A stretch of DNA of 61,930 nucleotides, from assembly GCA_040397685.1 (NCBI GenBank), contig JBBAVM010000003.1, positions 1 to 61,930 on the forward strand, written 5' to 3'. Both the position numbers and the translations under genes were made by a program. Under the pieces are notes generated by a model. It did no database searches. It saw only the letters and a program-made list of their open reading frames with translations, and had not been told where the DNA came from. Origin of the DNA: Pirellulales bacterium (GTDB lineage Bacteria; Planctomycetota; Planctomycetia; Pirellulales; UBA1268). Positions 1 through 25,827 of the stretch are shown piece after piece; position 1 is the stretch's first letter; each line of letters starts with the position of its first letter.

Positions 1-1040
1 GCCAGGAGCGGATCCCAGTCCTCGCCCCAGATCACCTTGATGACGTTCCAGCCGGCGCCGCGGAACACACCCTCGAGCTCCTGGATGATCTTGCCGTTGC
101 CGCGGACCGGGCCGTCGAGCCGCTGCAGGTTGCAGTTGATCACGAACACGAGGTTGTCGAGCTTCTCGCGGGCCGCGAGGGAGATCGCCCCGAGCGTCTC
201 GGGCTCGTCGGTCTCGCCGTCGCCGATGAAGCACCACACGTGCTGGCGGCTCGTGTCCTTGATGCCCCGGTCCTGCAGATACTTGTTGAACCGGGCCTGG
301 TAGATGGCCATGATCGGGCCGAGCCCCATCGAGACGGTGGGGAACTCCCAGAACTCCGGCATCAGCCAGGGATGCGGGTAGCTCGACAGGCCGCCGCCTG
401 GCGCGAGCTCGCGGCGGAAGTTCTCCAGGTTCTTCTCCGACAACCGTCCCTCGAGAAACGCCCGCGAGTAGATGCCCGGCGAGGCGTGGCCCTGGAAGTA
501 GACCTGGTCGCCCGAGTAGTCGTCGCCGCGGCCGCGGATGAAATGGTTCATCGCGACCTCGACGAGCGTGGCCGACGAGGCGAAGGTCGAGATGTGGCCG
601 CCGATGCTCTTGTCTTCCCGGTTGGCCCGGACGACCATCGCCATCGCGTTCCAGCGGATGATGCTCTTGATCCGTCGCTCGATCTCGCGGTTGCCCGGAT
701 ACGGGGGCTGCCGATCGGCCGGGATGGTGTTGATGTAGGGCGTCGTCGCGGAGAACGGGATCGCGACGCCCAGCCGATAGGCCTCCTGCTCGATGGCGTG
801 GAGGAGATAGGCGGCGCGGTCTCCGCCCCGGCTCGTGATCACGTAGCGGAGCGAGTCGAGCCACTCCCGGGTTTCCGTCGGGTCGGAATCGACCGCGGAG
901 ACGCCGTCGGCGATCTCCGGCTGGCCGCTGGCCGTCTCGCCGACCTGCCCGATCGACATCGGGGCATGGGCGCCCCGCGGCAGCCCGGGAACCTCGTCGG
1001 CGACATCGCTTCCAGACTGCTCGGTTTCGGGGCTGGCCAT
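1..1040 (-). CDS. aceE: Pyruvate dehydrogenase E1 component (homodimeric AceE type), N-terminal ~346 codons; gene continues past the window start
   Basis: Own minus-strand translation from ATG at 1040-1038 ([12 protein letters not shown]...). It reads ...[73 protein letters not shown], the ThDP-binding GDG...NCN signature of AceE. Absent from the ORF track because there is no stop inside the window. Confidence 0.85.
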
Positions 1041-1112
1041 GGTGGACTCCGGGAGTGCTATCGCGGCAGAACCTGCATTATCCGGCCATTTCCTCGCCCC
1101 GTAAAGGCCGAA

Positions 1113-2540: not shown

Positions 2541-2696
2541 GAGTCGTGAACCTGTCTCGGGGAGGTGGGGCGGGCGGGGAGGGGATCACGGCGATCGGGG
2601 GTCGCCGGAAACGTCGGGGTTGTTGTAGTTTCGCCGGCGGTTTCGGACAAGAAAACCGCCTGACTGGCGGGACTGCCGCACGATCCCCGGTGGTGC

Positions 2697-4199
2697 ATGG
2701 CACGTTTGGCACGGTCGGTGGCGACGTGGGCCGGTCGGACGTTCGGGCTCGATTTCCGCAGCCTGGCCTGCCTGCGGGCCGCGCTGGGCCTCGTCATCGT
2801 CGCCGACGCGGTGCTGCGCACGCGCGACCTCGCGCTCATGTTCGCCCCGGACGGGATGTTTCCGCTGGCCACGCTGCGGGAGTTCTTCGGCGACGGCTGG
2901 TCGTGGTCTCTCGGCTTCGTCGTCGATGCCACGTGGTGGGGCACCGCGCTCGTCGCGCTCGAGGGGCTCGCCGGGGCCGCGCTCGCCGTGGGCCTCGGCA
3001 CGCGCGTCGCCTCGTGCCTGGCCTGGGTCGCGGTGGTGAGCGTGCTGCGGCGCACCGCCCCGGCCACCAACGCGGGCGACGAATGGCTCGCCTGCCTGCT
3101 CTTCTGGGGCATGTTTCTGCCATGGGGAAAAACCTGGTCGATCGATGCGCGGAGGCGCCGCCGGTGTCCATGGGTCGGATCCGGCCCGGCCTGCTGTTCC
3201 CCCGCCACCATGGCCCTCGTCCTCCAGATCGCCGCGGTGTATCTCGGGGCCGCCCTCTCGAAATGGAACCCGACCTGGCTGTCCGGCGACGCCGTGGGGT
3301 GCGCGCTCTCGATCCACGACCATGGCACCGCCTGGGGCGACGCGCTCGCGAGGCATCCCGCGGTCTGCCGGCTGCTCACATGGGCGGTGTTGGGAATCGA
3401 AGTGGCGGCGCCCTGCCTCCTCGTGGCGACAGGCCGCCCCGCCGTGCGGATCGCGCTGGTCGCGATCTTCCTCGCGTTCCACGCGGCCACGGCCATGCTC
3501 ATGTCGCTCGGACTTTTCGCCTTCGTCGGCATGGCTGCCTGGCTGACCCTCGTTCCGACCGCGTGGTGGGACTCGTGGCTGGCTCCCGCGCGATTGCCGG
3601 CCCAAACCGCCGCGCCGCTCCCCGCCGCGGGACCGCGGTCGGGAGCGTGGCTGGAATCCGCGACCGTGGTGGCGGCGATCGGGGTTGCCAGCGCCGCGTT
3701 CCTCCACGCCAACACGCCGCTGCGCGCGGTGCCATTGCCAATGCCGCTCACGGCTGCCGTGCGCGCGACCTGCCTCGGGCAGGACTGGGGCATGTTCGGC
3801 GAAGTGCGCTGCCAGCGGCAGTGGGTCTTTGGCCGCGGGGTGCTGGCCGATGGCCGTGCCGTGGACGTGCTGCGGACCGGCCGCCCGCTCGAGGCAACGC
3901 TTCCCGCCGGTGGCTTCACCTCGCTGCCGCACCACCGCTGGCACAAACTCTTCTGGGAGTTGCCGGAGCCGGACCGCCGGGCGTTCGCCCCCGGTGTCGC
4001 GGCGGCGCTCGCCCGTGCGTGGAACCACAGCCATCCCCCGGAGGAGCAGCTCGTCGCGCTCGAACTGCGGGCGGTGCGCCTGCTCGACGAGCGTGCCGGC
4101 GGCACGCGGCACGAACTGCTTCTCGCCTCGTGGCCGCCGCGGGACGGCGCCGGGCAGGGCAGCCTCGACCGCTGGCTCGAGGAGCGAACGCCGCGGTGA
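2697..4199 (+). CDS. HTTM-domain (vitamin-K carboxylase / SdpB-like) polytopic membrane protein
   Basis: 500-aa ORF. N-terminal FGLDFRSLACLRAALGLVIV followed by multiple hydrophobic helices, typical of HTTM domains. C-terminal ~200-aa soluble part. Family assignment is by motif recall only. Confidence 0.6.
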   Translation: MARLARSVATWAGRTFGLDFRSLACLRAALGLVIVADAVLRTRDLALMFAPDGMFPLATLREFFGDGWSWSLGFVVDATWWGTALVALEGLAGAALAVGLGTRVASCLAWVAVVSVLRRTAPATNAGDEWLACLLFWGMFLPWGKTWSIDARRRRRCPWVGSGPACCSPATMALVLQIAAVYLGAALSKWNPTWLSGDAVGCALSIHDHGTAWGDALARHPAVCRLLTWAVLGIEVAAPCLLVATGRPAVRIALVAIFLAFHAATAMLMSLGLFAFVGMAAWLTLVPTAWWDSWLAPARLPAQTAAPLPAAGPRSGAWLESATVVAAIGVASAAFLHANTPLRAVPLPMPLTAAVRATCLGQDWGMFGEVRCQRQWVFGRGVLADGRAVDVLRTGRPLEATLPAGGFTSLPHHRWHKLFWELPEPDRRAFAPGVAAALARAWNHSHPPEEQLVALELRAVRLLDERAGGTRHELLLASWPPRDGAGQGSLDRWLEERTPR

Positions 4200-11826: not shown

Positions 11827-13050
11827 TCACGGGGCGCCGTCGCCAGGGTCTTCGTCCGCAGCCCGCCCCGGCCCGGCCTGACCGGTCGAGCCCGGTCCGT
11901 CGAGCCCGAACCGCTGGAGCTTGCGGCGGAGCACCGACCGGTCGATCCCGAGCAGTTTTGCCGCGAGCGACTTGTTTTGCATCGTGGCCGCGAGCGTGCG
12001 TTCCAGATGCAGCCGCTCGACATCGGCGAGCGTCGGCCACTCGTTGCCCACGGCGGCATCGCCCGGCCGTACCGCCGCCCCCGCCGGAGGGTGAGTCGGC
12101 GCGGCGGGCGGTGGAGGCGGCTTCACCGCCGGCTCGACACGAAACACGCCGGGCACCACCGTCGTGGAGAGGATGCCCTGGGCGGCGGCCTGTGCGAGCT
12201 GCGAGAGGTCGTGCGGCGCCGACTGGGGCGGCCCCGCCGCCGCCGCGACGTCGCCACCGTTCACCATGAATCCGCTCAAGGCCTCCGGGTCGATCTCGTC
12301 GCCGGACGAGAACATCACCGCGCGCTCGAGAACGTTTTCCAGTTCGCGGACGTTGCCCGGCCAGGCGTAGGCCTGCAACACGTCGAGGGCGGCCGGGGAC
12401 AGGGTGCATAGCGGCATGCCATGGCGGGCGGCGAGCTCCGCGAGATACCGGGCCGCCAACACGGGCACGTCCTCGGGACGATCCCTGAGCGGGAGGGTGC
12501 GGATCGTGACGACGTTCAGCCGGTAGTAGAGATCCTCGCGAAAGCGGCCCTGGCCGACCTCGCGGCCGAGGTCGCGATTCGTGGCGGCGACCACGCGGAC
12601 ATCGACGGGAATCTCGTCGTGGCTGCCCACGGGCACGACCGTCCGTTGCTGGAGCACCCGCAGGAGCTTGGCCTGCAGCTCCAGTTCCATCTCGCCGATC
12701 TCGTCGAGGAAGATCGTGCCGCCGTCGGCCGCGCGAAAACATCCGAGCGTGGAAGACGTGGCACCGGTGAACGAGCCCTTGACGTGCCCGAACATGTGGC
12801 TCGCGAACAGCGTGCCGGTCGTCACCGCGCAATCGACCGGAATGAACGGCTTCGCGGCCCGTTTGCCCGTGGCGTGGACGGCCCGGGCGATAAGTTCCTT
12901 GCCGGTGCCGCTCGGGCCGAGGATCAGCACGCTCGACTGGTGGGCGGCGACCAGCTCGATCGCCCGTCGCACCTGCTGGGCCCACGGCGACACCCCCGCG
13001 ATCCGATCGAGGGAGAATGCGGCGGCGCGGTGCTGGGAGACGCTTGGCAT
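11827..13050 (-). CDS. Sigma54-dependent transcriptional activator (bEBP) made only of an AAA+ domain and a Fis-type HTH
   Basis: Internal ATG (13050) of ORF 11827..14418: [29 protein letters not shown]... Walker [15 protein letters not shown]-loop variant [17 protein letters not shown]-terminal [28 protein letters not shown]. The AAA+ domain starts by about residue 15. Confidence 0.88.
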
Positions 13051-13299
13051 GGGACCGTCGTGATCGCCTTGGGCGCCAGTGAATTTAATGGGGAACTTCC
13101 TCGCACCATCCCCAATCCCTCGAAAATGTACCTTCTGCTGCGGCGACCCGCCATCGGGCGGTCCGGTTGCACCGGTCGAGCCGGTGGGATCGATTCCGGA
13201 AAAAAAGGCGGCCGAGCGTTCGCCTGCGGCGGAAAGATGGGCAAAGATTGAGGTGGTGGACGGTCGCCCACCCGTTGGAGTCCCTGGAGCCGCGCAGGC

Positions 13300-14631
13300 A
13301 TGGATCGGATGTCCGTCGTCACCGCCCCTGGCGTCCAGCTGCGCCGGCGTTCCGGCTGGCCGTGGCTGATCGGCCTCGCCGCCCTCGGCGGCCTCGGCTG
13401 GCTCGCGGCCGATCGCCTGCTCGTCGATCGGAGCCCGATCCTCGTCGGGCTGCTCCACTCGCAGACCGGGCCGATGGCGGTCAGCGAGACATCGATGATC
13501 GACGCCGAGGTGCTCGCGCTCGAAGAGATCAATGCGGCCGGCGGCCTCCTCGGGCGGCCGGTCCGTTGGGTGATCGCCGACGGGGCGTCCGATCCCCAGA
13601 CCTTCGCCCGGCAGGCCGAGAAATTGATTCACGAGGATCGCGTCTCGGTCGTGTTCGGCTGCTGGACGAGCGCCAGCCGGAAGGCCGTGCTGCCCGTGGT
13701 CGAGGCGGCCGATCATCTGCTCGTCTATCCGATGGCCTACGAAGGGCTCGAGCAGTCCCCCAACGTGATCTACACGGGCGCCGCTCCCAACCAACAGATC
13801 ACGCCGGCGGTCCAGTGGTGTTTCGACACGCTCGGCGCCCGGCGGTTCTTCCTCGTCGGGTCGGACTACATCTGGCCGCACTGCGTCAACGCGATCATCT
13901 CCGACCAGCTCGCCGGCCTGGGCGCCGAACGCGTCGGCGAGGCCTACATCCCCTTCGGCAGCACCGACGTCGAAGCCACGGTCAAGGAGATCATCGCGGC
14001 CAAGCCCGACGTGATCCTGAGTTCGGTCGTGGGCGACTCCGCCCTCGCCTTCGCGCGCCAGCTGCGGGCTGCGGGCCTCAAGTCGGAGGACGTGCCCGTC
14101 ATGATGTTCGCGATCGCGGAGGACGAACTGCGGACGGGCGACCGCGACGATTTCGCGGGCCATTACGCCGCCTGGAACTACTTCCAGAGCATCGGCCGGC
14201 CGGAGAACGAGGCCTTCGTCCGCAGTTTCAAGGCCCGGTACGGCAGCGACCGCACGACATCCGACGTGATCGAGTCGGCCTCCGCGAGCGTCCGGCTCTG
14301 GGCCCAGGCGGTCAACGAGGCCGCCACCACCGAGGTGCGGCAGGTGCGCAACGCCATGCGGTCGCAGAGCCTCGATGCCCCCGAGGGGATCATCTCGATC
14401 GATCCGGCCACACAGCACACCTGGCGGCCGGTGTCGATCGGACGGATCCGGCCCGACGGACAGTTCGACATCGTGTGGACGAGTCGCACCGCGGTGCGAC
14501 CGGTGCCGTTCCCGATCTCGCGGTCGCGCGAAGCCTGGGAGCAGTTCGTCTCCGACCTCTATCGGAAGTGGGGAGGCTCGTGGATCAACACGACGGCCCG
14601 GCCGGCCCGCGAACGGGAGGCCGCCCGATGA
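13300..14631 (+). CDS. Membrane-anchored UrtA/AmiC/FmdD-type (urea / short-chain amide) periplasmic solute-binding protein
   Basis: 443-aa ORF. N-terminal anchor [18 protein letters not shown]. Then [36 protein letters not shown]...[17 protein letters not shown]...[20 protein letters not shown]...[11 protein letters not shown]...AAWNYFQS...DAPEG...GQFDIVW, which closely follows the UrtA/AmiC consensus as I recall it. Confidence 0.82.
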
Positions 14632-16694
14632 CGACGTCCCTCACCACGCCCCCGGATGCCGCAGGACCCGCTGTCGCGCAGGCCATGCAACGCTCGATCG
14701 CCGGCCGCCTCTTGTTCTGGTTCCTCGTGATCGCCCTCATTCCGTGTGCGATCCTCACGGCGATCACGGCGCGCATCGCCACGCGGGCGCTCGAGAACTC
14801 GGTCCGCAACAACCTCGTGCACATCGCCGCGTCGAAGGCCCAGGAACTGGAGGCCTACGCGATCGAGCGGGTCCGGGAAGGCATGGCCACGTCGCGTGGG
14901 CCGACGATCGTCCGCGCGGTGCGCGAACTCACGGCCGAAGCCGGGCCCGCGACCGACGCGCTCGACGAGGTCCGGCGGGGCAAACTCGAGGCCGCCGGCC
15001 GGCTGTACGAGGAGTTTCTCGGATACGTCGCCGGCTCGTACGGCTATGCGGAAATCCTCCTGCTCGACGCCACCGGGCGCGTCGTGTTCTCGCTCGACAA
15101 ACAGATCCCGCTCGGCGGCTCCGTGCTCGCCGGCAGCCTGGCCGCCTCGGAACTGGCCGCCGCCTACGACCGGTCGCGGACGCTCCTGCAATCCGAACTC
15201 TCGGGCTTCCAGACCTACGGCGGCGGGCAGCGACCGCTGGCGTTCGTCACCAGCCCGGTCCTCTCCGAAGGGCGGGTCATCGGAGTGCTCGCCATGGGGC
15301 TCGGGCCGGAGCGGGTGTGGCAGGTTCTCTCCGATCTCAGCGGCCTCGGACGCACCGGCGAGATCGTGACCGGCGAACGCCGCGGCCAGACCATGCTGGT
15401 CACCTGCCCGCTCCGCCATGTGCCGGACGCGGCGTTCAAGCTCCAGATTCCACTGGGCGACAACGTCGCCACCGCCACGCAGAAGGCGGCCAGCGGGGGC
15501 CGCGGCTTCGGCCCGGCACGCGACTACCGCAACGCCGACGTGGTGGCCGCCTGGTGCTACCTGCCGAGTTTCCGCTGGGGCATGAACGTGAAGCAGGACG
15601 CCGCGGAGGCGTACGCGCTGGTGAACTTCCAACGCGCCGCGATTATCGGCCTCTCGCTGGCCACGATCCTCGGCGTGACGATCGCGGCGCTCGCCGTCGC
15701 CCGGACGCTCTCGGCGCCGATCCGCACGGCCGTGGACGTCGCGCGGCAGGTGGCCGGCGGCGACCTCCGGGCCCAGGTGGGCGTCACCAGCGACGACGAG
15801 ACGGGCGCCCTCCTGACCGCGATCCAGACGATGACCAACGACCTGCGCGGGCTGATCGGCCGGATCCAGAAATCGTCCGTCGCCCTGATCTCGACCGCGA
15901 CCGCGATCCAGGCCACGAGCAGCGAGCAGCAGCAGGTGATCGCCGACTACGGCGCCTCCACGAGCGAGGCGGTGGCCGCCGTCAAGCAGATCTCGGTCAC
16001 GAGCCAGGAACTCGTGCGCACCATGACCGAGGTCAACGACATGGCCGCGCGGACCGGCCGGATGGCCGCCGAGGGCCGGGGCAACCTCACCGGCATGGAC
16101 GCCACCATGCGGCAACTCGCCGAGAGCACGTCGTCGTTCGGCTCGAAGCTCGCCGTGATCAGCGAGCGTGCCGCCAACATCAACCTCGCCGTGACAACGA
16201 TCACCAAGGTCGCGGACCAGACGAACCTCCTCTCGATCAACGCCGCCATCGAGGCGGAGAAGGCCGGCGAGTACGGCCTCGGGTTCCTCGTCGTCGCCCG
16301 CGAGATCCGGCGGCTCGCCGACCAGACGGCCGTGGCGTCGCTCGACATCGAGCGGATGGTGAAGGAGATGCAATACGCCGTGTCGGCCGGCGTGATGGAG
16401 ATGGACAAGTTCGCCGAGCAGGTGCGGGGCGGCGTGCGCGAGATCGGCGACATCGCCGGCAAGCTCGGGGAGATCATCGGGGCGGTGCAGGGCATCTCCG
16501 GCCGCTTCGGCCAGGTGACCGAGGGGATGCGGGCCCAGTCGCAGGGCGCCGAGCAGATTCGCGAGGCGATGGTGCGGCTCGCGGAGGGGGCCTCGCGCAC
16601 GGCGGCATCGCTCGACGACTTCAACACGGCCACGATCCACCTGCGCGAGGCCGTCGGCGACCTCAAGGAGGAGGTCTCGCGCTTCACGATCTGA
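14628..16694 (+). CDS. Methyl-accepting chemotaxis protein (WspA position) with a large Cache-like periplasmic domain and HAMP
   Basis: ATG overlaps the binding-protein stop (ATGA). Two TM segments flank a ~290-aa domain ([19 protein letters not shown]). HAMP, then signalling hairpin [34 protein letters not shown]. Confidence 0.9.
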
Positions 16695-16709: not shown

Positions 16710-17225
16710 ATGCACATCCTCACCTTCACCGTCGCCGGCCAGCCCTACGCGATTCCTTCACGCAAGGTGCTCGAGGTTCTTCCGCTGGTGCCCGCGCGGC
16801 CCGTTCCGCTCCTGCCCGACTACGTGTCCGGGGTGTTCACATACCGGGGCCAACTCGTGCCGCTGGTGGACCTCGGCCGCCGGTTCGGGGCGCCCGCGGC
16901 GGAGCATGCCGATCGGCGGCGGCTGAGCACCCGGGTGATCATCGTCGAGTTCGCAGGGCCCGCCCCTTCCGCCGACGCTCCGTCGGCCGTCGCCCCCCCG
17001 CGGATGCTGCGGCTCGGGCTGGTCGCCGACGACGTCGTCTCGATCCAGGAGACCATCGGAGACGAGGCGGCGCCGGCGGAGTCGTCGATGACCCACGCGC
17101 CGTTTCTGGGACGCCTCGTGCGTCTTCCCAGCGGCACGGTCCAGATGGTCGTGGTCGAATTCCTGCTGCCGGCGGACCTCGTGCAGGGCCTCGTCGCCGC
17201 CGTTGCCGGAGCCTCCGCATCATGA
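16710..17225 (+). CDS. cheW: CheW-like coupling protein (WspB position)
   Basis: 171-aa ORF: ILTFTVAGQPYAIPSRKVLEVLPL...GVFTYRGQLVPLVDL. Confidence 0.85.
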   Translation: MHILTFTVAGQPYAIPSRKVLEVLPLVPARPVPLLPDYVSGVFTYRGQLVPLVDLGRRFGAPAAEHADRRRLSTRVIIVEFAGPAPSADAPSAVAPPRMLRLGLVADDVVSIQETIGDEAAPAESSMTHAPFLGRLVRLPSGTVQMVVVEFLLPADLVQGLVAAVAGASAS

Positions 17226-18505
17226 CGAACACGGCCGTCCGTGATCCCGGCAGTTGCCCCTCGGCGGAAGACCTCCTCGCGCGCTGGATCGGCCTCGACG
17301 CCGACACGATCGGCTCGGCCTCGATCGCGCGGGCCGTGCGAACCCGCATGGACGCGCTCCGGCTCGTCGAGCCGGCTGCGGCCGTGGCCCGCGCCGAGGC
17401 CGACCCCGCCGAACGCGACCGGCTCGTCGAGGAGGTCGTCGTCGGCGAGAGCTGGTTCTTCCGCGACCCGCAGGTGTTCGCGTTCGTCAGCCGATTCGCC
17501 GCCGCGCGGGCTTCCCTGCCAGACCGCGGCCCGATCCGGATCCTCAGCGCCCCGTGCGCCGGGGGCGAGGAGCCCTACTCGATGGCGATGGCGCTCCTCG
17601 ACGCCGGCGTGGCGCCCGACCGGTTCGCCATCGACGCCATCGACGTCAGCCACCAGGCCCTCGATCGGGCCCGGGAGGGCCGCTATTCGGCGAACGCGTT
17701 CCGCAACGCCGACCTCTCGTTCCGCGACCGCTGGTTTCATCGCGACGGCGCCCAGTCCGTGCTCGACGAGGCGGTCCGCCGGCAGGTCCGGTTCCAGTGG
17801 GCGAACCTGCTCGACGATTCGTTCGTCACGACGGCGCTCGCCGCTGCGCATGCGCCCTACGACGTCGTGTTCTGCCGCAACCTCCTGATCTACCTGACGC
17901 CGCAGGCCCGCGGCACGGTGGAGCAGGTGCTCGACCGGCTCGTGACGGCCGACGGCCTGATCGTCCTCGGGGCCGCGGAGCCGCCGATCCTCAAAGGAGA
18001 GTGGATTCCTGCTGGCGATAGTTCGACGTTCGCCCTGCGCCGCGGCGTTCGCACCTTCGCCGTGCCGGCCCCGGTGCCGCCGCCGCGCCAGCGGCCGACG
18101 GCGCCCCAGCTCCCAGCTCGGCGCAGCGGCGCCACGGTGGCGACGACCACACCACCGACACCCGCGAGCGATGTCCCAGCGCGGCCGCTCGACGACGTGC
18201 TGCGCGAGGCGGGGGCGTTGGCCAACGCCCGGCGATTCACCGAGGCCCTCGCGGTGTGCGAGTCACACGCCCGGGCCGCCGGGCCGGCGCCGGAACTCTT
18301 CTTTCTCATGGGCATGGTGCATCAGTCGGCCGGCGATGCCGACCGTGCCGAGGGGTGCTTCCACAAGACGCTCTACCTCGATGCGTCCCACGACGAGGCC
18401 CTGCTCGCCCTCGCGCTCCTCGCCGGGCAACGTGGTGACGCCGTCATGGCGGAGCACTACCGGCGGTCGGCCGCCCAGATGCACGATCGGAAGGGCACGG
18501 CATGA
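17222..18505 (+). CDS. cheR: CheR-type MCP methyltransferase with C-terminal TPR domain (WspC position)
   Basis: ATG overlaps the cheW stop (ATGA). ESWFFRDPQVF, SAM motif ILSAPCAGGEEPYSMAM, VVFCRNLLIYL. Pro-rich linker, then TPR (FFLMGMVHQSAGDADRAEGCFHKTLYLDASHDEAL). Confidence 0.9.
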   Translation: MTNTAVRDPGSCPSAEDLLARWIGLDADTIGSASIARAVRTRMDALRLVEPAAAVARAEADPAERDRLVEEVVVGESWFFRDPQVFAFVSRFAAARASLPDRGPIRILSAPCAGGEEPYSMAMALLDAGVAPDRFAIDAIDVSHQALDRAREGRYSANAFRNADLSFRDRWFHRDGAQSVLDEAVRRQVRFQWANLLDDSFVTTALAAAHAPYDVVFCRNLLIYLTPQARGTVEQVLDRLVTADGLIVLGAAEPPILKGEWIPAGDSSTFALRRGVRTFAVPAPVPPPRQRPTAPQLPARRSGATVATTTPPTPASDVPARPLDDVLREAGALANARRFTEALAVCESHARAAGPAPELFFLMGMVHQSAGDADRAEGCFHKTLYLDASHDEALLALALLAGQRGDAVMAEHYRRSAAQMHDRKGTA

Positions 18506-19206
18506 GCAGCCTCGGCAAGACCGTGACCGCTCCGATGGAAGAGTGCTGGCGCCGGATCGGCGTGGCGGGCGATCGCAGTTGCCCGGAGCTGCAGACCTTC
18601 ATCCATTGCCGCAACTGCCCCGTGCTCGCGGACGCCGCCCGTACCTTCTTCGACCGCGAGGCGCCGGAGGGCTACCTCGAGGCCTGGAGCCGGATTCTCG
18701 AGGAGCCGGACGTCGCGGTGGCGACCGATGCCACGAGCGTCCTCGTGTTTCGCGTCGGCCGCGAATGGCTCGCCCTGCCCACCCACACCCTCGTCGAAAT
18801 CACGACCCTGCGACCGCTCCACCGCGTGCCCCATCGCACCGCTGGAGGGCTCTCAGGGCTCGTGAACATCCGCGGCCAACTGCAACTCTGCGTCTCGCTG
18901 CACGGTCTGATCGGCCTCGAAGACGCCCCCCCAGCGTTCCACGCCACCGACGAGGGTCCCACGGCCGCGCGGCTGCTCGTCATCGAACAGGCTACGGAAG
19001 CCGGCGGGGGTCGCTGGGTCTTCGCGGCCGACGAAGTCGCGGGCGTCCAGCGGATCGAGCGGTCCTCGCTGCGGGCGGTGCCCTCGACCGTCAGCCAGTC
19101 CACGGCCCATCTCTGCCAGGCGCTCTTCGACTGGCAGGACCGGTCGGTCGGCCTGCTCGACGAGACGCAGCTGTTCGACGGACTCCACGAACTGATCGCG
19201 CGGTAG
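18502..19206 (+). CDS. CheW-like protein with N-terminal four-Cys motif (WspD position)
   Basis: ATG overlaps the cheR stop (ATGA). CWRRIGVAGDRSCPELQTFIHCRNCPV, followed by a CheW fold (VLVFRVGREWLALPTHTLVEI...GLVNIRGQL). Confidence 0.85.
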   Translation: MSSLGKTVTAPMEECWRRIGVAGDRSCPELQTFIHCRNCPVLADAARTFFDREAPEGYLEAWSRILEEPDVAVATDATSVLVFRVGREWLALPTHTLVEITTLRPLHRVPHRTAGGLSGLVNIRGQLQLCVSLHGLIGLEDAPPAFHATDEGPTAARLLVIEQATEAGGGRWVFAADEVAGVQRIERSSLRAVPSTVSQSTAHLCQALFDWQDRSVGLLDETQLFDGLHELIAR

Positions 19207-19219
19207 CGGAGGAGACCAC

Positions 19220-21583
19220 GTGGCCGAGGACTTGAGCGGATTCTCGATGCTGGAGCTGTTCCGCCTCGAAGCGGAAGGGCAGACGGCGATCCTCTCCGCC
19301 GGCGTGCTGGCCGTCGAGGAGCTGGAACGCTCCCCCGAGACGATCGAGGCGATGATGCGGGCCGCGCACTCGCTCAAGGGGGCCGCGCGGATCGTGGGAC
19401 TCGATCCGGCGGTGCGGGTGGCGCACGCGATGGAAGACTGCTTCGTCGCCGCGGGCAAAGGCCAGTTCCGCGTGCGTCCTGAACATGTCGATCTCCTGCT
19501 GGCGGCCGTCGATTTTCTCGCGACCATCGCCCGGGCCGACGACGCGCTCGCGCCGGAGAGCCGCTGGGCCGCCACGGCCGACGCGCTCGTCACCGAGCTC
19601 GGAGCGCTCCTGGAGCCTGTGAGCCCATCGACCACCGGTGTGCCGGTTCCCCCCGTCGCCGCGGCTCCGGTCACCGCCGCTGCTCCCTCCACCGTGCCCC
19701 CGGCGCCGCCTGCGGAGACCACGCCGCCGACCGCGAAGCCGGCCCAGCAGGCTGCCGAGGAGCGGCCGGCCGCCGAACCGCCGCCGCCGGCCGCAGCCCC
19801 GGCCGGCTCGGCACGGGCCATCGAGCAAGCCGACCGCGTCGTGCGCGTCTCGGCCGACAGCCTGACGAGACTCGTCGGCCTTGCGGGCGAGTCGCTCGTG
19901 GAGACCAAGCAACTGCGTCCGTTCGTGGATTCGCTCCTCAACCTCCGCGCCGCCCAGGTCGAACTCTGCGACACGATCGCCGCGGTCGAGGAGCGATTCA
20001 AGACCGACGACGCGGCGATCCCCGCGCCCCTGGTGGGCCTGGTCGCGCGGGTCCGCGAGCGGGCCGACGCCTGCCTGACAACGCTCATGAAGCAGGTGGA
20101 CGATCTCGAGAGTTTCGCCCGGCGCAACGAGGACCTCTCGAACCGCCTCCACCACGAGGTGATCGCGAGCCGGATGCGGCCGCTCGCCGACGGCATCCGC
20201 GGCTTCCCCCGGCTCGTCCGCGACGTCGCCCGCACGCTTGGAAAACAGGTGCGGTTCGAGGTCCGGGGCGAGCAGACCGGCGTCGACCGCGACATTCTCG
20301 ACAAACTCGAGGCTCCGCTCTCGCACCTCATCCGCAACGCCCTCGACCACGGCCTCGAGACGCCGCAGGAGCGCGAGGCGAGCGGCAAGCCGCCCATCGG
20401 CACGATCCGCCTCGAGGCCCGCCACCGCGCCGGCATGCTCCACATCACACTCACCGACGATGGCCGCGGCATCGACGTCGAGAAACTCCGCGCCCGCGCG
20501 GTCACGCGGGGGCTCGTGGCCCGGCAGGTGGCCGAGCAATTGACGGAACTCGAACTGCTCGAATTCCTCTTCCTGCCGGGCTTCTCCACGAAGGACCAGG
20601 TCACGGAGATCTCGGGCCGGGGCGTCGGCCTCGACGTCGTCCAGAGCATGGTGAAGGGCGTGGGCGGCACCGTGCGGGTGACGACGCAGCCGGGCCGGCA
20701 GACCGTGTTCACGCTGCAATTGCCGATCACGATGTCGGTGATCCGGGCACTGCTGGTCGAGATCGGCGGAGAGCCCTACGCCTTTCCGCTCACCCGTATC
20801 GACAACATCCTCGAATGCCGCCACACGGACGTGCGGACGGTGGAGGGGCGCCAGTACTTCGACCGCGACGGCGTCTCGATCGGCCTCGTGTTCGCGGCGC
20901 AGATCCTCGACATGCCCGGCCGCGAGCAGCCGGCCGACCCGATGCCCGTGGTCGTGATCAGCGACCGGGGCCAGCAGTTCGGCATGATCGTCGATGCCTT
21001 CCTCGGCGAGCGCGACCTGGAGGTGCGTCCGCTCGACCGCCGGCTCGGCAAGGTGCCGGACATCAACAGCGCGTCGCTCCTCGAAAACGGCAACCCGGTG
21101 CTGATCGTGGACGTCGAGGATCTCGTCCGCTCGATCGACAACGTGCTCGCCGGCCGCCGGCTGTCGCGGGTGGAGTTCGAGCAGTTGGCGGAGCAGTCGC
21201 GGCGCCGCAAGAGGATTCTCGTGGTGGACGACTCGATCACGGTCCGGGAACTGGAGCGGCAGCTGCTCCAGGCCCGCGGTTTCGCCGTGGACGTGGCGGT
21301 GGACGGCATGGACGGCTGGAACACCTTCCGGGGCGCCCACTACGATCTCGTGGTCACCGACGTGGACATGCCGCGCATGGACGGCATCGGGCTGGTGACG
21401 CTGATCAAGAACGACGCGACGCGCAGGGATGTTCCGGTGGTCATCGTCTCCTACAAGGATCGCGAGGAGGACCGGCTCCGCGGGCTGGACGCCGGGGCGA
21501 ACCGCTATCTCACGAAGAGCAGTTTCCACGACGAGACGTTCGTGCGTACGATCATCGACCTCGTGGGAGAGCCCCTGACGTGA
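19220..21583 (+). CDS. cheA: Hybrid CheA histidine kinase with C-terminal receiver domain (WspE position)
   Basis: GTG start after GGAGGA. Hpt AHSLKGAARIVG, long Pro/Ala linker, RVVRVSADSLTRLVGLAGE dimerisation region, HATPase (NALDHG...DDGRGID...GRGVGLD), CheW-like domain, REC (ILVVDDS...VVTDVDMPRMDG...YLTKS). Confidence 0.93.
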   Translation: MAEDLSGFSMLELFRLEAEGQTAILSAGVLAVEELERSPETIEAMMRAAHSLKGAARIVGLDPAVRVAHAMEDCFVAAGKGQFRVRPEHVDLLLAAVDFLATIARADDALAPESRWAATADALVTELGALLEPVSPSTTGVPVPPVAAAPVTAAAPSTVPPAPPAETTPPTAKPAQQAAEERPAAEPPPPAAAPAGSARAIEQADRVVRVSADSLTRLVGLAGESLVETKQLRPFVDSLLNLRAAQVELCDTIAAVEERFKTDDAAIPAPLVGLVARVRERADACLTTLMKQVDDLESFARRNEDLSNRLHHEVIASRMRPLADGIRGFPRLVRDVARTLGKQVRFEVRGEQTGVDRDILDKLEAPLSHLIRNALDHGLETPQEREASGKPPIGTIRLEARHRAGMLHITLTDDGRGIDVEKLRARAVTRGLVARQVAEQLTELELLEFLFLPGFSTKDQVTEISGRGVGLDVVQSMVKGVGGTVRVTTQPGRQTVFTLQLPITMSVIRALLVEIGGEPYAFPLTRIDNILECRHTDVRTVEGRQYFDRDGVSIGLVFAAQILDMPGREQPADPMPVVVISDRGQQFGMIVDAFLGERDLEVRPLDRRLGKVPDINSASLLENGNPVLIVDVEDLVRSIDNVLAGRRLSRVEFEQLAEQSRRRKRILVVDDSITVRELERQLLQARGFAVDVAVDGMDGWNTFRGAHYDLVVTDVDMPRMDGIGLVTLIKNDATRRDVPVVIVSYKDREEDRLRGLDAGANRYLTKSSFHDETFVRTIIDLVGEPLT

Positions 21584-21593
21584 GACTGCCGGC

Positions 21594-22595
21594 ATGAGGA
21601 TCGGGATCGTCAACGACGTGCGCGCCGCCTGCGAGGCACTGCGCCGAGTCGTGGACAGCCTGCCCGACCACGAGGTCGCCTGGACGGCGGCCGACGGGGT
21701 CGAGGCGATCGCGATGGCGAAACGCGACCGCCCCGACCTGATCCTCATGGACCTGATCATGCCGCACCTCGACGGCGTGCAGGCGACACGGCAGATCATG
21801 GCGTCGGCGCCGTGCGCGATCCTGGTCGTCACGGCCACCGTGAGCGGCAACATCTCGCTGGTCTACGACGCGATGGGCTTCGGCGCCCTCGACGCGGTCG
21901 ATACGCCCATGCTCGGCCCCGCGGGCGAGGTGAGCGGCGCGGGAGCGCTCGTGGAAAAGATCGGCATGATCGCCAAGCTCGTCGGCGCCACGGAGTCGCG
22001 TCGGCCGGCCCGGCCGACGCCCGCATCCGGGCCGCCGAAGCTCGTGGTCGTGGGCGCCTCGACGGGCGGCCCGAAGGCGGTCTCCGACCTGCTCCTGCCG
22101 CTGCCGCGCGACTGGAACGTGGCGGTGGTGGTGGTGCAGCACGTCGATATCGCGTTTGCCCAGGGGCTCGCCAAGTGGCTGGGCGACCGGACGGGCCGGC
22201 CGGTGCGCGTGGCGGAGCACGGCCAGCAACCCGTCGGTGGCGACGTGCTTCTCGCCGGCACGAACGACCATCTCGTCCTCTCGAAGTCCCGCACCCTGGA
22301 GTACCGCGAGGAACCCCGCGACGTGTTCTTCCGCCCGAGCGTGGACGTGTTCTTCGAGAGCGTCGCGGAGCACTGGCCGCAGACCGGCACCGCCCTCCTG
22401 CTCACGGGCATGGGAAAGGATGGCGCCCGCGGGCTCTTGAAGTTGCGGTCGCGCGGCTGGCACACGATCGCGCAGGACGAGGCCTCGAGCGTCGTGTGGA
22501 GCATGCCGAAGGCGGGAATCGATCTCGGCGCCGCGACCGAGGTCCTGGCGGTCGATCAGATGGCCAGATCGCTCGTCGCGCGGCTCACCGTCTGA
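21594..22595 (+). CDS. cheB: CheB-type methylesterase/deamidase response regulator (WspF position)
   Basis: REC domain (IGIVNDV...LILMDLIMPHLDG) plus methylesterase domain (VVVGASTGGPKA...VVVQH...GMGKDG). Confidence 0.92.
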   Translation: MRIGIVNDVRAACEALRRVVDSLPDHEVAWTAADGVEAIAMAKRDRPDLILMDLIMPHLDGVQATRQIMASAPCAILVVTATVSGNISLVYDAMGFGALDAVDTPMLGPAGEVSGAGALVEKIGMIAKLVGATESRRPARPTPASGPPKLVVVGASTGGPKAVSDLLLPLPRDWNVAVVVVQHVDIAFAQGLAKWLGDRTGRPVRVAEHGQQPVGGDVLLAGTNDHLVLSKSRTLEYREEPRDVFFRPSVDVFFESVAEHWPQTGTALLLTGMGKDGARGLLKLRSRGWHTIAQDEASSVVWSMPKAGIDLGAATEVLAVDQMARSLVARLTV

Positions 22596-24039
22596 CGGCG
22601 CCGGCTTCGATCGCCGCCATCGCCTCGAGCGCGGTCGCCTCGCCCCCGGTGAGCGCGATCACCTGCACGCCGACGGGCAGGCCCCGGCTGCCCCGATCCG
22701 TGAGCGCGGCCGCGCGGGCGATCGGATCGCGGTCCGCGGCCCGGCCGCCCTCCTCGTCGGAGCCCACGGTCGTCACGGGCACGGCTCCGGCGGCGAGGTC
22801 GAGCAGGTTGGCGAGCAGGCACGGGAACGCGGCCGGCAGCAATCGGGCGGCCGTGCCGTGCCGCAGGGCCGGCAGGGCCGACACCGGACAGACGATCGCA
22901 TCGCACCGGGCCGCGAGGTCGCGCACTCGGATGGCGAGGTCTGCCCGGGCCGCGAGCACGCGCTCGAGCGCCGCCCGGGCCCGCGGCCCCGTGGCGCGGA
23001 GTGCCTCGGCCTCGATGCGGCGGCCCGTAAGGTCCGCGAGCCCGGCGAGCCAGCGACGCCGAGGTTCCGGCAGCCGGGCCAGGCGCAACAGCCGTGCGAC
23101 GCCCGGGATCGGCCGCGTGCCGCCGAACAGCCGGCGGATGTCGGCGCCTCCGTCGGCGGAAAGGATGGCGAGCAGGATCCAGGCGGCCTCGAGCCCCAGC
23201 CCGCCGTCGAGGGGCACCATGCGGTAGCCGCCGGCTTCGAGCGTTGCCACGGCCTCGTGCACGCCCCGGCTGATCGCCGGCGAGGGCGGAAGCACGCCCG
23301 CATCGGTCCACCACCCGATGCGGCGCAGTGGCGGGGCGGTCGTGAGCCCGTCACCTCCAGGCACGAGCGCCGCATACGCCAGTGCGAGGTCGGACACGCT
23401 CCGCGCGAGAAAGCCGGCCCGCGGACGCACGACCGCGAGGTGCGGGACCGTGTCGAACGCGCCCCCCTCGCCGAGGACGCTCGTGCGCGGCAGCAGCCCC
23501 GCGATGCCGCAGGCGTGCGCCGGCTGCCGGATCGAGCCGGCGAGGTCGGTGCCGACCGCGAGGGGCACGACGCCGGCCGCCACGAGCGCGGCGTCCCCAC
23601 CGCTCGAACCTCCCGGACCACGGTCGGCCGCGAGGGGATGGATCGTGCGGCCCCAGACCGGATTGTCGGTCTCGTGGAGATACATCGCCTGCGGCACGTT
23701 CGCCTTGCCCACGAGGACCGCCCCGGCAGCCCGCAACCGCACGACGATGTCGGCGTCGTGGTCGTCCGGACCGCTGCGGCCCGGGATGCCGAGCGTGGTC
23801 TCGAGGCCCTGAACGGCGAAACACTCCTTGACGCTGACCGGCACCCCGCCCAGCGGCAGACCGGCGACGGCCCCGATCTCGGCGGCGGCCGCGGCATGCC
23901 GCGGCTGGACGAGCGCGTTCACGCGCGGGTGGGTCGCGCGGTGCCGGGCGACGTGGTCGGCCAGCACCTCGGCCGGGGTCAGGTTACCGGCGGCCACGGC
24001 CGCGACGATCTCCGTGGCCGCGGCGGCTCCGCCGCTCAA
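22585..24039 (-). CDS. Amidase-signature (AS) family amidase
   Basis: Frame of ORF 22585..24306, but start placed at TTG 24039, which overlaps the upstream gene's stop (TTGA). SGGAAAATEIVAAVAAGNLTPAEV..., catalytic VSVKECF, GGSSGG, DLAGSIRQPA. The 3' end overlaps the cheB 3' end by 11 nt (convergent). Confidence 0.85.
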   Translation of the reverse strand: MSGGAAAATEIVAAVAAGNLTPAEVLADHVARHRATHPRVNALVQPRHAAAAAEIGAVAGLPLGGVPVSVKECFAVQGLETTLGIPGRSGPDDHDADIVVRLRAAGAVLVGKANVPQAMYLHETDNPVWGRTIHPLAADRGPGGSSGGDAALVAAGVVPLAVGTDLAGSIRQPAHACGIAGLLPRTSVLGEGGAFDTVPHLAVVRPRAGFLARSVSDLALAYAALVPGGDGLTTAPPLRRIGWWTDAGVLPPSPAISRGVHEAVATLEAGGYRMVPLDGGLGLEAAWILLAILSADGGADIRRLFGGTRPIPGVARLLRLARLPEPRRRWLAGLADLTGRRIEAEALRATGPRARAALERVLAARADLAIRVRDLAARCDAIVCPVSALPALRHGTAARLLPAAFPCLLANLLDLAAGAVPVTTVGSDEEGGRAADRDPIARAAALTDRGSRGLPVGVQVIALTGGEATALEAMAAIEAGAVRR

Positions 24040-25730
24040 AAAAGATCCTCGACGGGGGCGACTTTCTTGGCGATCGTCCGGCAATCGCTCGCCCACACGA
24101 CGTCGCCGTCGAAGAGCACGCCCGTGACCATCACGGTCTCGCCGGTCTCGGCCACCGGCTCCGATCGGGAGATCACCGAGACGCTCCGCGGCTCCGTGCC
24201 CTGCACGGTGATGCGAGACGACCAGTACGGTCCGACCTTGCGTGCGCCCTCGAACGTCGCGAGGAGCACCGCGCCGTCGGCGGGACGGCGGCGGGATGCG
24301 AGCCACATCCCGCTCAGCTTCTCGAGCTCCGCCTGCATGGTGGCATCGGCCCCCACGGCGGCGCCGAGCGCCACGACGCCATCGAGCGTCCCGTCGAGAC
24401 TGCGGCCGGAATCGGCGGCGACTTTCTCGAGCAGGACCAGTTGCTCCGCGACGGCGGCGAGCCGCTTGTACCAGCCGACGAGCAGCTTGCGGCGGTCGGG
24501 TGATTCCGGATCGGAAGCCGAGAGCTCCTCGAACGCAGCGGTGGCGTCTCCGACGGCGGCGTCGAGATCCGAGACATCGAGCGGCTCCGGTTCGGGCGGC
24601 GTCACCGGCACCGGCACCGGCGGCGTCTTCATGGCGACGTCGCCGAGCGGTGGGGCCGGCTGGGACTCGGGCGCCGGTTCCGTGGGGGCAGGTGCGGGTT
24701 CCGTCGCCGCGGTGACCGCCGCAGGCTTCGCAGATTCGGCGGGAGCCGGATCGGGTTCGCGGGGGTCCGGGAGAGGCGGCTCCGGTTCGGGAACGACCGG
24801 CGTCTCGCCCGCCTCGGGCTCGGCGGCGGTGGACAGGTTGTCGAGCGGAGAGGCCGCGTCGAGCTTCGGGCCCGACATCTTCTTCGAGCCGCCGGGCTGA
24901 AACTTTTGCGGCAGCAGAAACGCCACCTCCTGCGGCAGCATGCCCGTGAGCTTGAACGGATCGCGCTGGAAGCCCCAGAGCAGGATCGCGTACGTGATCG
25001 GAATCGCCATCAGGCCGCCGAGCACGATGCCGATGAGTTGGCCGAGTCCGCCCCCCTGCGCACGGGCCGCCCGCGTCGCGGCCGGCGCGACCGCCGGTGC
25101 GACTGCGGCTCCGGCAACCGCCATGTCGTCTGCATGAGCGTCATCGGACGCCGGCGCACCGAAAGGAATCGCATCGCCAGACTCGCTCGCCCCGTCGAAA
25201 CCCGAGGCATCGAACGACGGCTGCTCGTCGGTGGAAAAATCGTCGTTCGACGTCTCCGCCGCGAGGGCGTCGGCCCAGTCGTCGGCCGCCGTGATGTCGC
25301 TCGTCGGATCGACCTCGCTCGCGGAGACGACCCCCGACATGCCGGTGCCGAGTTCGACGTGCGACGAGCCCACCGCACCCGGGATTTGGTCAGCGGAGGC
25401 GTGCAGATCGTCCGGGGCGGAAAAATCACCGAAAGCGGAGGCGTCATCGTAAGCCTCGGGAAACGCCGGCGCCGGCTCGGTGGCGTCGGCTTCGGCCGAC
25501 GGAAACACCGCCAGCGGAGGCTCGCCCATCGGGACGACGTCCGGTTCCTCGAGCCAGGCGGAAACATCGCCCAGGTCATCTGCAGCGGCATCGGGCTTGA
25601 GCGACTCCACCGCATCGGCATCGCCCGTGGTGTCGAACGAAAACGTGAAGCCCTCGTCGGCCTGCCCTTCGCCCTCGTTTCCGATACCCGCCCAGGGATC
25701 GGGCGCCGAGTCGTCTTTGTCGTCCACCAT
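24036..25730 (-). CDS. Hypothetical single-pass membrane protein: highly acidic N-terminal region, Pro-rich linker, C-terminal globular domain
   Basis: Start at MVDDKDDSAPDPW (25730) within ORF 24036..25955; upstream codons overlap the carboxypeptidase 3' end. ~260 aa are D/E/A/S-rich. TM segment LGQLIGIVLGGLMAIPITYAILLWGF. No family recognised. Confidence 0.6.
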   Translation of the reverse strand: MVDDKDDSAPDPWAGIGNEGEGQADEGFTFSFDTTGDADAVESLKPDAAADDLGDVSAWLEEPDVVPMGEPPLAVFPSAEADATEPAPAFPEAYDDASAFGDFSAPDDLHASADQIPGAVGSSHVELGTGMSGVVSASEVDPTSDITAADDWADALAAETSNDDFSTDEQPSFDASGFDGASESGDAIPFGAPASDDAHADDMAVAGAAVAPAVAPAATRAARAQGGGLGQLIGIVLGGLMAIPITYAILLWGFQRDPFKLTGMLPQEVAFLLPQKFQPGGSKKMSGPKLDAASPLDNLSTAAEPEAGETPVVPEPEPPLPDPREPDPAPAESAKPAAVTAATEPAPAPTEPAPESQPAPPLGDVAMKTPPVPVPVTPPEPEPLDVSDLDAAVGDATAAFEELSASDPESPDRRKLLVGWYKRLAAVAEQLVLLEKVAADSGRSLDGTLDGVVALGAAVGADATMQAELEKLSGMWLASRRRPADGAVLLATFEGARKVGPYWSSRITVQGTEPRSVSVISRSEPVAETGETVMVTGVLFDGDVVWASDCRTIAKKVAPVEDLF

Positions 25731-25827
25731 GATGTCCTCGCCGGCCGCGAAATGCTTCTCGAAATCAACCCCGCAAAAGTCTACCACCGGCCAAAGACGG
25801 AGGGAAAACGACCGGCGGGCGACGGGC

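Follow-up and report, generated by a model that had tools for sequence, protein, structure and literature searches.

A UrtA-type binding protein as the probable membrane-tethered ligand-binding subunit of a double-Cache receptor in a Pirellulales bacterium

What does a binding protein of the urea/amide type do when the gene behind it encodes a receptor and not a permease? The question is raised by a Pirellulales bacterium (assembly GCA_040397685.1), in which the first 61,930 nucleotides of contig JBBAVM010000003.1 (forward strand; this whole stretch is referred to below as the window) carry a gene for a UrtA/AmiC-family protein, P0001, that runs directly into the gene for a methyl-accepting receptor with a double-Cache (dCache) sensor, P0002. 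We conclude that P0001 is probably a dedicated, membrane-tethered ligand-binding subunit of the receptor that follows it and not a component of a transport system. The role of ligand-catching subunit is the most likely one because no transporter was found to go with the protein and because it is always encoded directly before a double-Cache receptor. As the window has a G+C content of ~70%, open reading frames (ORFs) were selected by third-position G+C together with profile matches. The two genes and their principal parts are as follows.

13300-14631, forward strand: P0001, receptor-linked binding protein of the UrtA/AmiC family, 443 aa (profile matches, AlphaFold2 model, tree clade)
13354-13422, forward strand: N-terminal signal-anchor of P0001, residues ~19-41, with the juxtamembrane sequence DRLLVDRSP (predicted helix; conserved in 120 homologues)
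14515-14589, forward strand: C-terminal extension of P0001, the hallmark of the receptor-linked clade (extra helix 410-423; motif)
14628-16694, forward strand: P0002, dCache-HAMP methyl-accepting receptor in the WspA position, 688 aa (MCPsignal, HAMP, dCache_1)
14775-15632, forward strand: periplasmic double-Cache sensor region of P0002, residues ~50-335 (AlphaFold2, Foldseek)

By its hidden Markov model scores and its pocket, P0001 is a member of the UrtA/AmiC (urea/amide) group and not of the LivJ group. It matches Peripla_BP_5 (PF13433) with 500.1 bits against a cut-off of 27, residues 48-408 covering positions 2-361 of the 363 in the profile, and Peripla_BP_6 with 280 bits. The UrtA equivalog model TIGR03407 gives 468.3 bits, which is below its cut-off of 492.75, whereas a LivJ-type model gives 43.5. 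The AlphaFold2 (AF2) model, at a mean predicted local distance difference test score (pLDDT) of 89.7, has the two-lobed Venus-flytrap fold of the UrtA/AmiC kind, and the best Foldseek matches are the urea-binding protein 8TG1 (TM-score TMt 0.91), the UrtA proteins (0.84) and AmiC (0.88-0.90), with a structural-alignment identity of 45-49% to UrtA and 8TG1 (TMt 0.84-0.91). Sequence searches rank them similarly (8TG1, 390 bits; UrtAs, ~315; AmiC, 190). The closest 120 database homologues are 70-86% identical to P0001, and those among them that have names are called urea-transporter binding proteins and come from Planctomycetia metagenome-assembled genomes (MAGs). A first-pass annotation of this DNA, made from the letters alone, had claimed a complete type-I fold with UrtA/AmiC-like blocks, and this is borne out: the blocks that it quoted lie in the 443-aa ORF, the translation of which contains AAWNYFQS, and the profile and structure searches agree; the LivJ placement that would have spoken for another family was not seen. 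Also as described there, the stop codon of P0001 (TGA, 14629-14631) overlaps the ATG of P0002 at 14628 in an ATGA. A GGGAGG Shine-Dalgarno sequence lies 7 nt 5' of this ATG, and an in-frame ATG 57 nt further downstream is another possible start; in relatives the called genes share 4 nt or leave a gap of 16 nt.

The strongest argument for a partnership comes from the distribution of the pair. A scan of one genome per species gave 80 loci, which were compared with the window proteins by tblastn. In all of the 78 loci with downstream DNA, drawn from at least eight phyla, a homologue of the sensor part of the receptor (TM1-dCache-TM2-HAMP, where TM is a transmembrane helix) directly follows the binding-protein gene, although in four of them it is split by frameshifts. 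No permease match adjoins the binding-protein gene in any of the 78, whereas the true UrtAs of the phylum do have one. The adjacency, which the first-pass annotation had made decisive for its reading, thus extends to other phyla and to other types of receptor. Downstream of the pair, 32 of these loci continue into Che genes, 28 have at least 1.5 kb of sequence without Che genes and 18 are too short. The same ten-gene block is found in the three close homologues that were examined on long contigs, and at locus L030 the pair is a stand-alone cassette amid unrelated genes. At ten more distant loci, for which the partners were analysed with Pfam, the partner is always of the TM-dCache-TM-HAMP type and the output domain varies.

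L071, L072, L079: methyl-accepting chemotaxis protein (MCP) signalling output (Pfam)
L077, L080, L081 (Pleurocapsa), L082 (Parabeggiatoa), L084 (Fuerstiella), L087 (Chthoniobacterales): HisKA/HATPase output, mostly with REC (Pfam)
L086: SpoIIE/PP2C output (Pfam)

Kinase outputs occur in Cyanobacteriota, Nitrospirota, Pseudomonadota, Verrucomicrobiota, Actinomycetota and Planctomycetota, and the SpoIIE/PP2C output in Myxococcota. Since the pairing is conserved while the outputs interchange, the binding protein and the dCache-HAMP module appear to be a functional unit; the constant association of one binding-protein clade with one such module, whatever the output, is strong indirect evidence of a partnership. 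The phylogeny agrees with this. In a maximum-likelihood tree of 93 sequences the receptor-linked binding proteins form one clade (support 100/100) on a long stem, and the permease-linked UrtAs (L094-L096 and L098), the Prochlorococcus UrtA, the Caldicellulosiruptor urea-binding protein and a second UrtA-like protein of the same genome, encoded on contig C69, all fall outside it. An orthologue was found in eight of the eight sampled genomes of the window's family; at the level of the order, 33 of 121 genomes matched the clade profile, and in an even sample of the phylum 10 of 151 genomes had any UrtA-like gene at all. One further UrtA-like domain, at locus L100 (genome G043, C1:757293-758348), has no signal sequence and heads an open frame of ~870 aa with a receiver-like end; it could represent a sensor in the manner of AmiC, cytoplasmic and joined to signalling domains.

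Could P0001 nevertheless serve transport, with its ATP-binding cassette (ABC) partner encoded elsewhere or in the unassembled 9% of the genome, and with the neighbouring receptor either incidental or shared in the manner of the maltose-binding protein (MBP) or PstS? Most of the binding proteins known to stimulate chemoreceptors of Escherichia coli and Pseudomonas aeruginosa are indeed transporter components (PMC8050422), P0001 is merely 24 bits short of the UrtA equivalog cut-off, and the assembly (207 contigs) is 91% complete. In this assembly, however, no urtBC-type permease was found, and no urtBCDE genes adjoin P0001. The only permeases of the hydrophobic amino acid uptake transporter (HAAT) family are on contig C30; they are of the Liv type (LivH 219 and LivM 203 bits, versus 117 for UrtB and 99 for UrtC) and lie in an operon with a binding protein and ATPases of their own, so that a separate urtABCDE locus, which the first-pass annotation had considered, was not found. 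Together with the universal, permease-free adjacency to the receptor across phyla and the separate clade with its own anchor and C-terminal extension, this makes a transport role very improbable. Nor was a urease alpha subunit found in the assembly. The genome holds two UrtA-like genes, and the one other than P0001 (C69:4532-~5800, reverse strand, locus L002) encodes an orphan paralogue with a lipoprotein-type signal (...LFAGC) and the complete set of urea contacts; it does not have the C-terminal extension, no transporter or receptor gene adjoins it, and no urease was found in the genome that carries it. Of the seven other sampled genomes of the family, four likewise have UrtA-like matches without the extension.

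How P0001 is held at the membrane can be judged from its two ends. The hydrophobic segment of residues 20-41 is an AF2 helix (pLDDT ~92) that ends five residues ahead of strand 1 (residue 47). No conserved signal-peptidase (AxA) site was found in the alignment of the 120 close homologues, because the residue before the conserved DRLLVDRxP varies among A, L, V, F, I and S, and is often L, V, F or I. The latter four residues before a cleavage point are incompatible with signal peptidase I, and P0001 therefore probably stays tethered through its N-terminal transmembrane helix, much as the first-pass annotation had supposed when it described the anchor as uncleaved-looking. In the same phylum the UrtAs that go with transporters begin with AxA signal peptides and stop shortly after the last strand, unlike the receptor-linked proteins, which have a hydrophobic anchor (a lipobox in two cases) a few residues before strand 1 and continue beyond the fold. 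In P0001 the C-terminal extension is modelled confidently as an extra helix (residues 410-423), and its motif R[ST]xxxWxxFLxxLYxGWGxxWANPG recurs in the receptor-linked proteins of every phylum, whereas neither transporter-linked UrtA nor the C69 paralogue has it. The extension alone gave no match when used as a query against the Protein Data Bank.

The receptor itself offers a platform on which such a protein could dock. P0002 has transmembrane helices at residues ~27-49 and ~336-358, a periplasmic region of ~286 aa between them, and then HAMP and the MCP signalling domain. Pfam assigns 103.3 bits to MCPsignal, 37.7 to HAMP and 35.1 to dCache_1 (PF02743), the last of which does not reach its cut-off of 45; in the partner receptors dCache_1 is found with 31-57 bits. 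The AF2 model of the sensor region, built from an alignment of 34 partner sensor regions, has a double-Cache fold (pLDDT 91), and its Foldseek neighbours include PctA, DctB, McpH, Tlp3 and Mlp24 (probability 1.0), with Dret_0059 (5ERE) also among the matches. The Cache-like periplasmic domain of ~290 aa that had been read from the sequence is thus present at nearly this length. Since only five residues separate the anchor of P0001 from its fold, the folded part has to lie at the surface of the membrane; in the partner receptors, moreover, the membrane-proximal module has roughly double the density of invariant and near-invariant residues of the distal one. For both reasons the membrane-proximal Cache module is a likely candidate for the docking site, as far as alignment and model can indicate.

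A complete and confidently predicted dCache fold, like those of the ligand-binding PctA, McpH and Tlp3, could equally well bind a ligand of its own, with P0001 as a second input or a modulator, as maltose-binding protein acts on Tar beside aspartate. Such direct or dual sensing has a parallel in the fusion protein Dret_0059 (5ERE), for which the binding-protein domain and the dCache are each listed with their own ligand, and the distal module does retain the near-invariant residues R161, T164, L165 and L166. We nevertheless regard it as unlikely. Conservation in the partner receptors is concentrated in the membrane-proximal module and not in the distal one, where most dCache ligands bind; the same sensor module occurs alongside both urea-type and derived binding-protein pockets, which fits a docking platform better than an independent chemosensor; and LuxQ, the best-studied dCache-like sensor that depends on a binding protein, is listed without a ligand of its own.

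If P0001 catches the ligand for the receptor, what would this ligand be? In UrtA of Prochlorococcus marinus urea is contacted by W120, S122, Y141, Q144, E146, Y190, (F192), N246 and S274, and mutation of S122, Q144, Y190, N246 or W120 strongly lowers or abolishes binding (PMC10392092). The corresponding residues of P0001, by alignment, are listed below.

UrtA W120: P0001 W122
UrtA S122: P0001 S124
UrtA Y141: P0001 Y143
UrtA Q144: P0001 A146
UrtA E146: P0001 E148
UrtA Y190: P0001 Y190
UrtA F192: P0001 W192
UrtA N246: P0001 V244
UrtA S274: P0001 A271

Five of the nine contacts are thus retained and the other four are replaced (Q to A, N to V, S to A and F to W): the partners of the carbonyl oxygen and of one NH2 group are kept, and the two side chains that serve the other NH2 group of urea are now small and hydrophobic. 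Of the 120 closest homologues, 119 have A where UrtA has Q144, and all 120 have W where it has F192. In the acetamide-binding AmiC, N246 is matched by V, and Q144, S274 and F192 by P, T and Y. A comparison of the pocket with those of UrtA and AmiC had been proposed at the outset; by alignment it confirms the assignment to the UrtA/AmiC group and shows a pocket that is in part hydrophobic, as in AmiC, but not an intact urea pocket. Because four of the nine urea contacts have become hydrophobic in this AmiC-like way, the predicted ligand of the window's subclade is probably a small aliphatic amide (e.g. acetamide) or a similar compound rather than urea.

The A/V/A/W signature marks a subclade of 71 members (support 100/100), every one of which is linked to an MCP. 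Basal receptor-linked members (L077, L080-L085, L087 and L097), which are mostly linked to kinases, retain the full urea pocket, and the ancestral receptor-linked unit would accordingly have sensed urea, with the window's subclade re-tuned later. The sister of the MCP-linked subclade is the binding protein of L086 (7024-10257, a Myxococcota MAG), which has an AmiC-like Y/P/W/V/A pocket and a dCache-HAMP-SpoIIE phosphatase as its partner. That the window protein is still a urea sensor, in which the four changes merely tune the affinity, is quite unlikely. The highest overall similarity of P0001 is to urea-binding proteins (8TG1 and the UrtAs, ahead of AmiC in bit score), and the five retained contacts and the complete urea pocket of the basal members point the same way, but the positions of Q144 and N246, either of which when mutated strongly cut or abolished urea binding in P. 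marinus UrtA (PMC10392092), are both hydrophobic and fixed in the subclade, no urease was found in the genome and an intact urea pocket is already provided by the separate C69 paralogue.

The receptor gene opens a cluster whose order, MCP-CheW-CheR-CheW-(CheA-REC)-CheB, is that of wspA-F. In the window the gene ends overlap or nearly abut, and the order is the same in relatives.

16710-17225, forward strand: CheW in the WspB position (81.5 bits)
17222-18505, forward strand: CheR methyltransferase with a C-terminal extension, in the WspC position (CheR, 114 bits, residues 77-253 of 427); its start overlaps the stop of CheW
18502-19206, forward strand: second CheW, in the WspD position (69 bits, residues 80-226)
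19220-21583, forward strand: hybrid CheA-REC kinase in the WspE position (Hpt, HATPase_c, CheW, Response_reg)
21594-22595, forward strand: CheB methylesterase in the WspF position (REC and CheB_methylest; NF009206, 426 bits, above the cut-off)
11827-13050, reverse strand: neighbouring divergent sigma-54 activator (AAA+ core from residue ~15, GSFTGA loop, HTH_8)

No Wsp-specific NCBIfam model was matched. The second CheW differs from the first in a Cys-containing N-terminal stretch, ...EECWRRIGVAGDRSCPEL... (18502-18630, forward strand), that precedes its CheW domain at residue ~80. A second, separate che cluster on contig C99 is available for motility, and P0002 probably heads a non-motility pathway; of the term chemoreceptor in the first-pass annotation the receptor class (dCache-HAMP-MCP) therefore stands and the role in taxis probably does not. 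The signalling domains of two further MCPs of the genome are 48-49% identical to that of P0002. The sensor regions of these proteins (C161:~1434-3500, reverse strand, and C156:~400-1998, forward strand) differ from that of P0002, and they are candidates for extra inputs to the same pathway.

Where would the signal go? In the distant Che clusters at L067, L074 and L083 a gene for a REC-SpoIIE protein lies directly after cheB, and because the REC-SpoIIE (PP2C) regulator encoded at C96:11477-12658 (forward strand) is a 56-66% identical orthologue of these proteins, it is the most likely output and, as judged by orthology, probably the output of the pathway in the window's genome. This gene has as neighbours a csrA-like gene and a pair of small paralogues of unknown function. 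Alternatively, the target could be the divergent sigma-54 activator or, as in a true Wsp system, a cyclic di-GMP enzyme. The activator, which like PspF or HrpR/S has no REC, GAF, PAS or V4R domain, is divergently encoded upstream of the operon in 29 close relatives, the cluster reproduces the order of wspA-F exactly, and Che3 of Myxococcus xanthus with its divergent NtrC-like CrdA sets a precedent for a sigma-54 activator as the output. We consider this alternative unlikely. The activator has no receiver domain that could take a phosphoryl group and is absent from the distant Che clusters (L067, L070, L074 and L083), those at L067, L074 and L083 having the REC-PP2C gene instead; neither this cluster nor those of relatives contain a REC-GGDEF gene (the search for one was confined to the clusters); and a canonical -24/-12 promoter is missing.

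The last point concerns a non-coding motif upstream of the operon.

13231-13250, forward strand: conserved non-coding motif GGAAAGATGGGCAAAGATTG in the 5' region of the operon (conserved in relatives)

The motif, of the form TCGCCYGG-N3-4-GGAAAGATGGRCAAAGATTGM, lies ~50 nt upstream of the start of the binding-protein gene, is strongly conserved in 23 of 29 relatives and is unique in the genome; TCGCCTGC occupies ~13219-13226, and there is an A-run (~13199-13206). In a number of public gene calls the start is wrongly placed inside the motif (MGKDC...). The motif TGGRCA-AAGA-TTGM resembles a sigma-54 -24/-12 promoter but is not counted as one, the spacing being 1 nt short and the window having TTGA, with GA in place of GC; neither the divergent intergenic region of the window nor those of 28 relatives contain the canonical GG-N10-GC element, and the 5' region gave no hit in scans against Rfam or for sigma-70 promoters and terminators. 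On the other side of the cluster an amidase-signature amidase gene is convergent on cheB, with its 3' end overlapping cheB by 11 nt, and is preceded by a long ORF without a Pfam match (24036-25955, reverse strand; the whole block spans 22585-25955, reverse strand). This block is conserved only among close relatives. A functional link of the amidase to amide sensing was considered and rejected, as the gene is absent from the distant Che clusters and matches generic amidase models only. Since both the amidase and the sigma-54 activator are confined to the syntenic block of close relatives, we do not count them as parts of the system.

Binding-protein-dependent transducers are known from Halobacterium salinarum (BasB/BasT and CosB/CosT) and from Vibrio (LuxP/LuxQ), in each case with a co-encoded binding protein and a dCache-like receptor (PMC8050422). 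The halobacterial pairs resemble the present one in that the binding-protein gene immediately precedes that of the transducer, with no transporter, the binding protein is membrane-attached and the outer domain of the transducer is dCache-like; BasB is also a type-I protein (Peripla_BP_6) (PMC8050422). They differ in being archaeal and lipid-anchored and in serving taxis towards amino acids or compatible solutes, whereas P0001 belongs to the urea/amide subfamily Peripla_BP_5, has a probable transmembrane anchor and a clade-specific C-terminal helix, and works with a receptor in a Wsp-ordered, probably non-motility pathway; the bacterial sensor pair moreover recurs with kinase and phosphatase outputs in many phyla. 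In LuxP/LuxQ, TorT/TorS and XylFII/LytS, too, a periplasmic binding protein is co-encoded with a dCache-like sensor as its ligand-binding subunit, which is the logic of the kinase-linked members of our clade (L077, L080-L084 and L087), but LuxP is a soluble Peripla_BP_4 protein that binds autoinducer-2, P0001 is a probably tethered protein of the UrtA type and the receptor in the window is an MCP. With UrtA (8HIC, 7S6E, 7S6F) and the urea-binding protein of Caldicellulosiruptor saccharolyticus (8TG1) P0001 shares the fold, the closest sequences and the five urea contacts; it departs from UrtA in its score below the TIGR03407 cut-off, its lack of urtBCDE, a probable anchor in place of a cleavable signal peptide, the additional C-terminal helix, the four replaced contacts and the separate clade.

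AmiC of the P. aeruginosa amidase operon (1PEA, 1QNL, 1QO0) had been named as a precedent for a regulatory role. The precedent holds for the fold, which is that of the same subfamily in a signalling role, and for the pocket, which by alignment is hydrophobic at the same positions (V244 is identical in AmiC, A146, A271 and W192 are analogous, and AmiC is non-polar or aromatic at Q144 and F192), but not for the location: AmiC is cytoplasmic and sequesters the antiterminator AmiR, whereas P0001, ~33% identical to it, has a predicted signal-anchor, would face outward and has a transmembrane receptor as its partner. Dret_0059 of Desulfohalobium retbaense (5ERE) also combines a type-I binding-protein fold with a double-Cache in one extracytoplasmic sensor, although as one polypeptide and not as two separately anchored proteins, and a sequence search with P0001 did not recover its binding-protein domain at E ≤ 1e-5. 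The Wsp system of P. aeruginosa (WspA-F, WspR) shares the gene order, the hybrid kinase and the coexistence with a separate che cluster, but the cluster described here has no WspR (REC-GGDEF), related clusters have REC-PP2C after CheB, and the receptor has a large dCache domain with a dedicated binding protein, for which reason it probably detects a chemical and not surface contact or envelope stress. Wsp-like genes had already been noted in a study of freshwater Planctomycetes, which did not mention the binding protein (PMC6461901), and targeted literature searches, whose coverage is incomplete so that an earlier description is possible, found no account of a UrtA-type receptor-linked family. 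The principle of binding-protein-dependent receptors is established, as is the ability of this subfamily to regulate; what is new is a tethered, extension-bearing clade of UrtA type that spans many phyla and three classes of output, contains a re-tuned pocket and stands at the head of a Wsp-ordered pathway.

The pairing reported in the first-pass annotation is thus confirmed, and its reading of the protein as a sensing partner of the receptor is supported; the following mechanism would fit these data. The binding-protein and receptor genes, arranged as an operon, would be co-expressed, and the binding protein would insert with its N-terminus in the cytoplasm and stay anchored, with only ~5 residues between the anchor and a globule that lies against the outside of the membrane. 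A small planar ligand with a carbonyl and an amine would close the Venus-flytrap pocket through contacts with S124, Y143, E148, Y190 and W122, in hydrophobic surroundings formed by A146, V244, A271 and W192. The liganded protein might then dock on the double-Cache domain, probably on its proximal module and perhaps aided by the clade-specific C-terminal helix, whereupon the receptor would control the hybrid CheA-REC through the two CheW proteins, with adaptation by CheR and CheB. The output, probably through the REC-PP2C regulator on C96, would be altered gene expression or cell state and not swimming.

Several considerations weigh against this interpretation of P0001 and its receptor. The anchor might still be cleaved; the docking surface on the receptor is a guess; the receptor's own Cache domain could sense directly or in addition; and the missing part of the assembly could harbour a transporter or a urease. 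The ligand is predicted only from aligned pocket substitutions, so that urea or another small molecule is possible, and no characterised protein with exactly the pocket of P0001 was found. The REC-PP2C output is unlinked in the window's genome and assigned by orthology alone, and in this lineage the divergent sigma-54 activator might belong to the circuit. The interpretation of P0001 as a dedicated receptor subunit can be extended, at a strength that falls short of probable, to an undescribed sensor unit common to at least eight phyla, in which a tethered UrtA-family protein with a C-terminal docking helix is combined with a dCache-HAMP module on an MCP, a kinase or a PP2C phosphatase. Its ancestors would have been urea sensors, and the planctomycete-centred subclade would have been re-tuned, most likely to an aliphatic amide, switching the cell state (e.g. 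between free-living and attached) by way of the Wsp-like pathway and the PP2C regulator.

Activation by a binding protein is documented for only a few chemoreceptors and sensor kinases, and the known cases are thought to under-represent the frequency of this mode of sensing (PMC8050422). The receptor-linked clade adds a family, recognisable from its sequence, in which the binding protein appears to be dedicated to signalling. For its members the public name 'urea ABC transporter substrate-binding protein' is misleading: it wrongly implies the uptake of urea in genomes without the transporter and without urease. Taken together, the anchor, the C-terminal extension and an adjacent dCache-HAMP gene distinguish these proteins from true UrtA. 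The basal, kinase-linked members are candidates for dedicated extracellular urea sensors, and the family as a whole would be a natural example of the re-tuning of a pocket within one sensor scaffold. For the freshwater Planctomycetes that are known here only from MAGs, the pair provides a first lead on the signal to which their Wsp-like pathway may respond.

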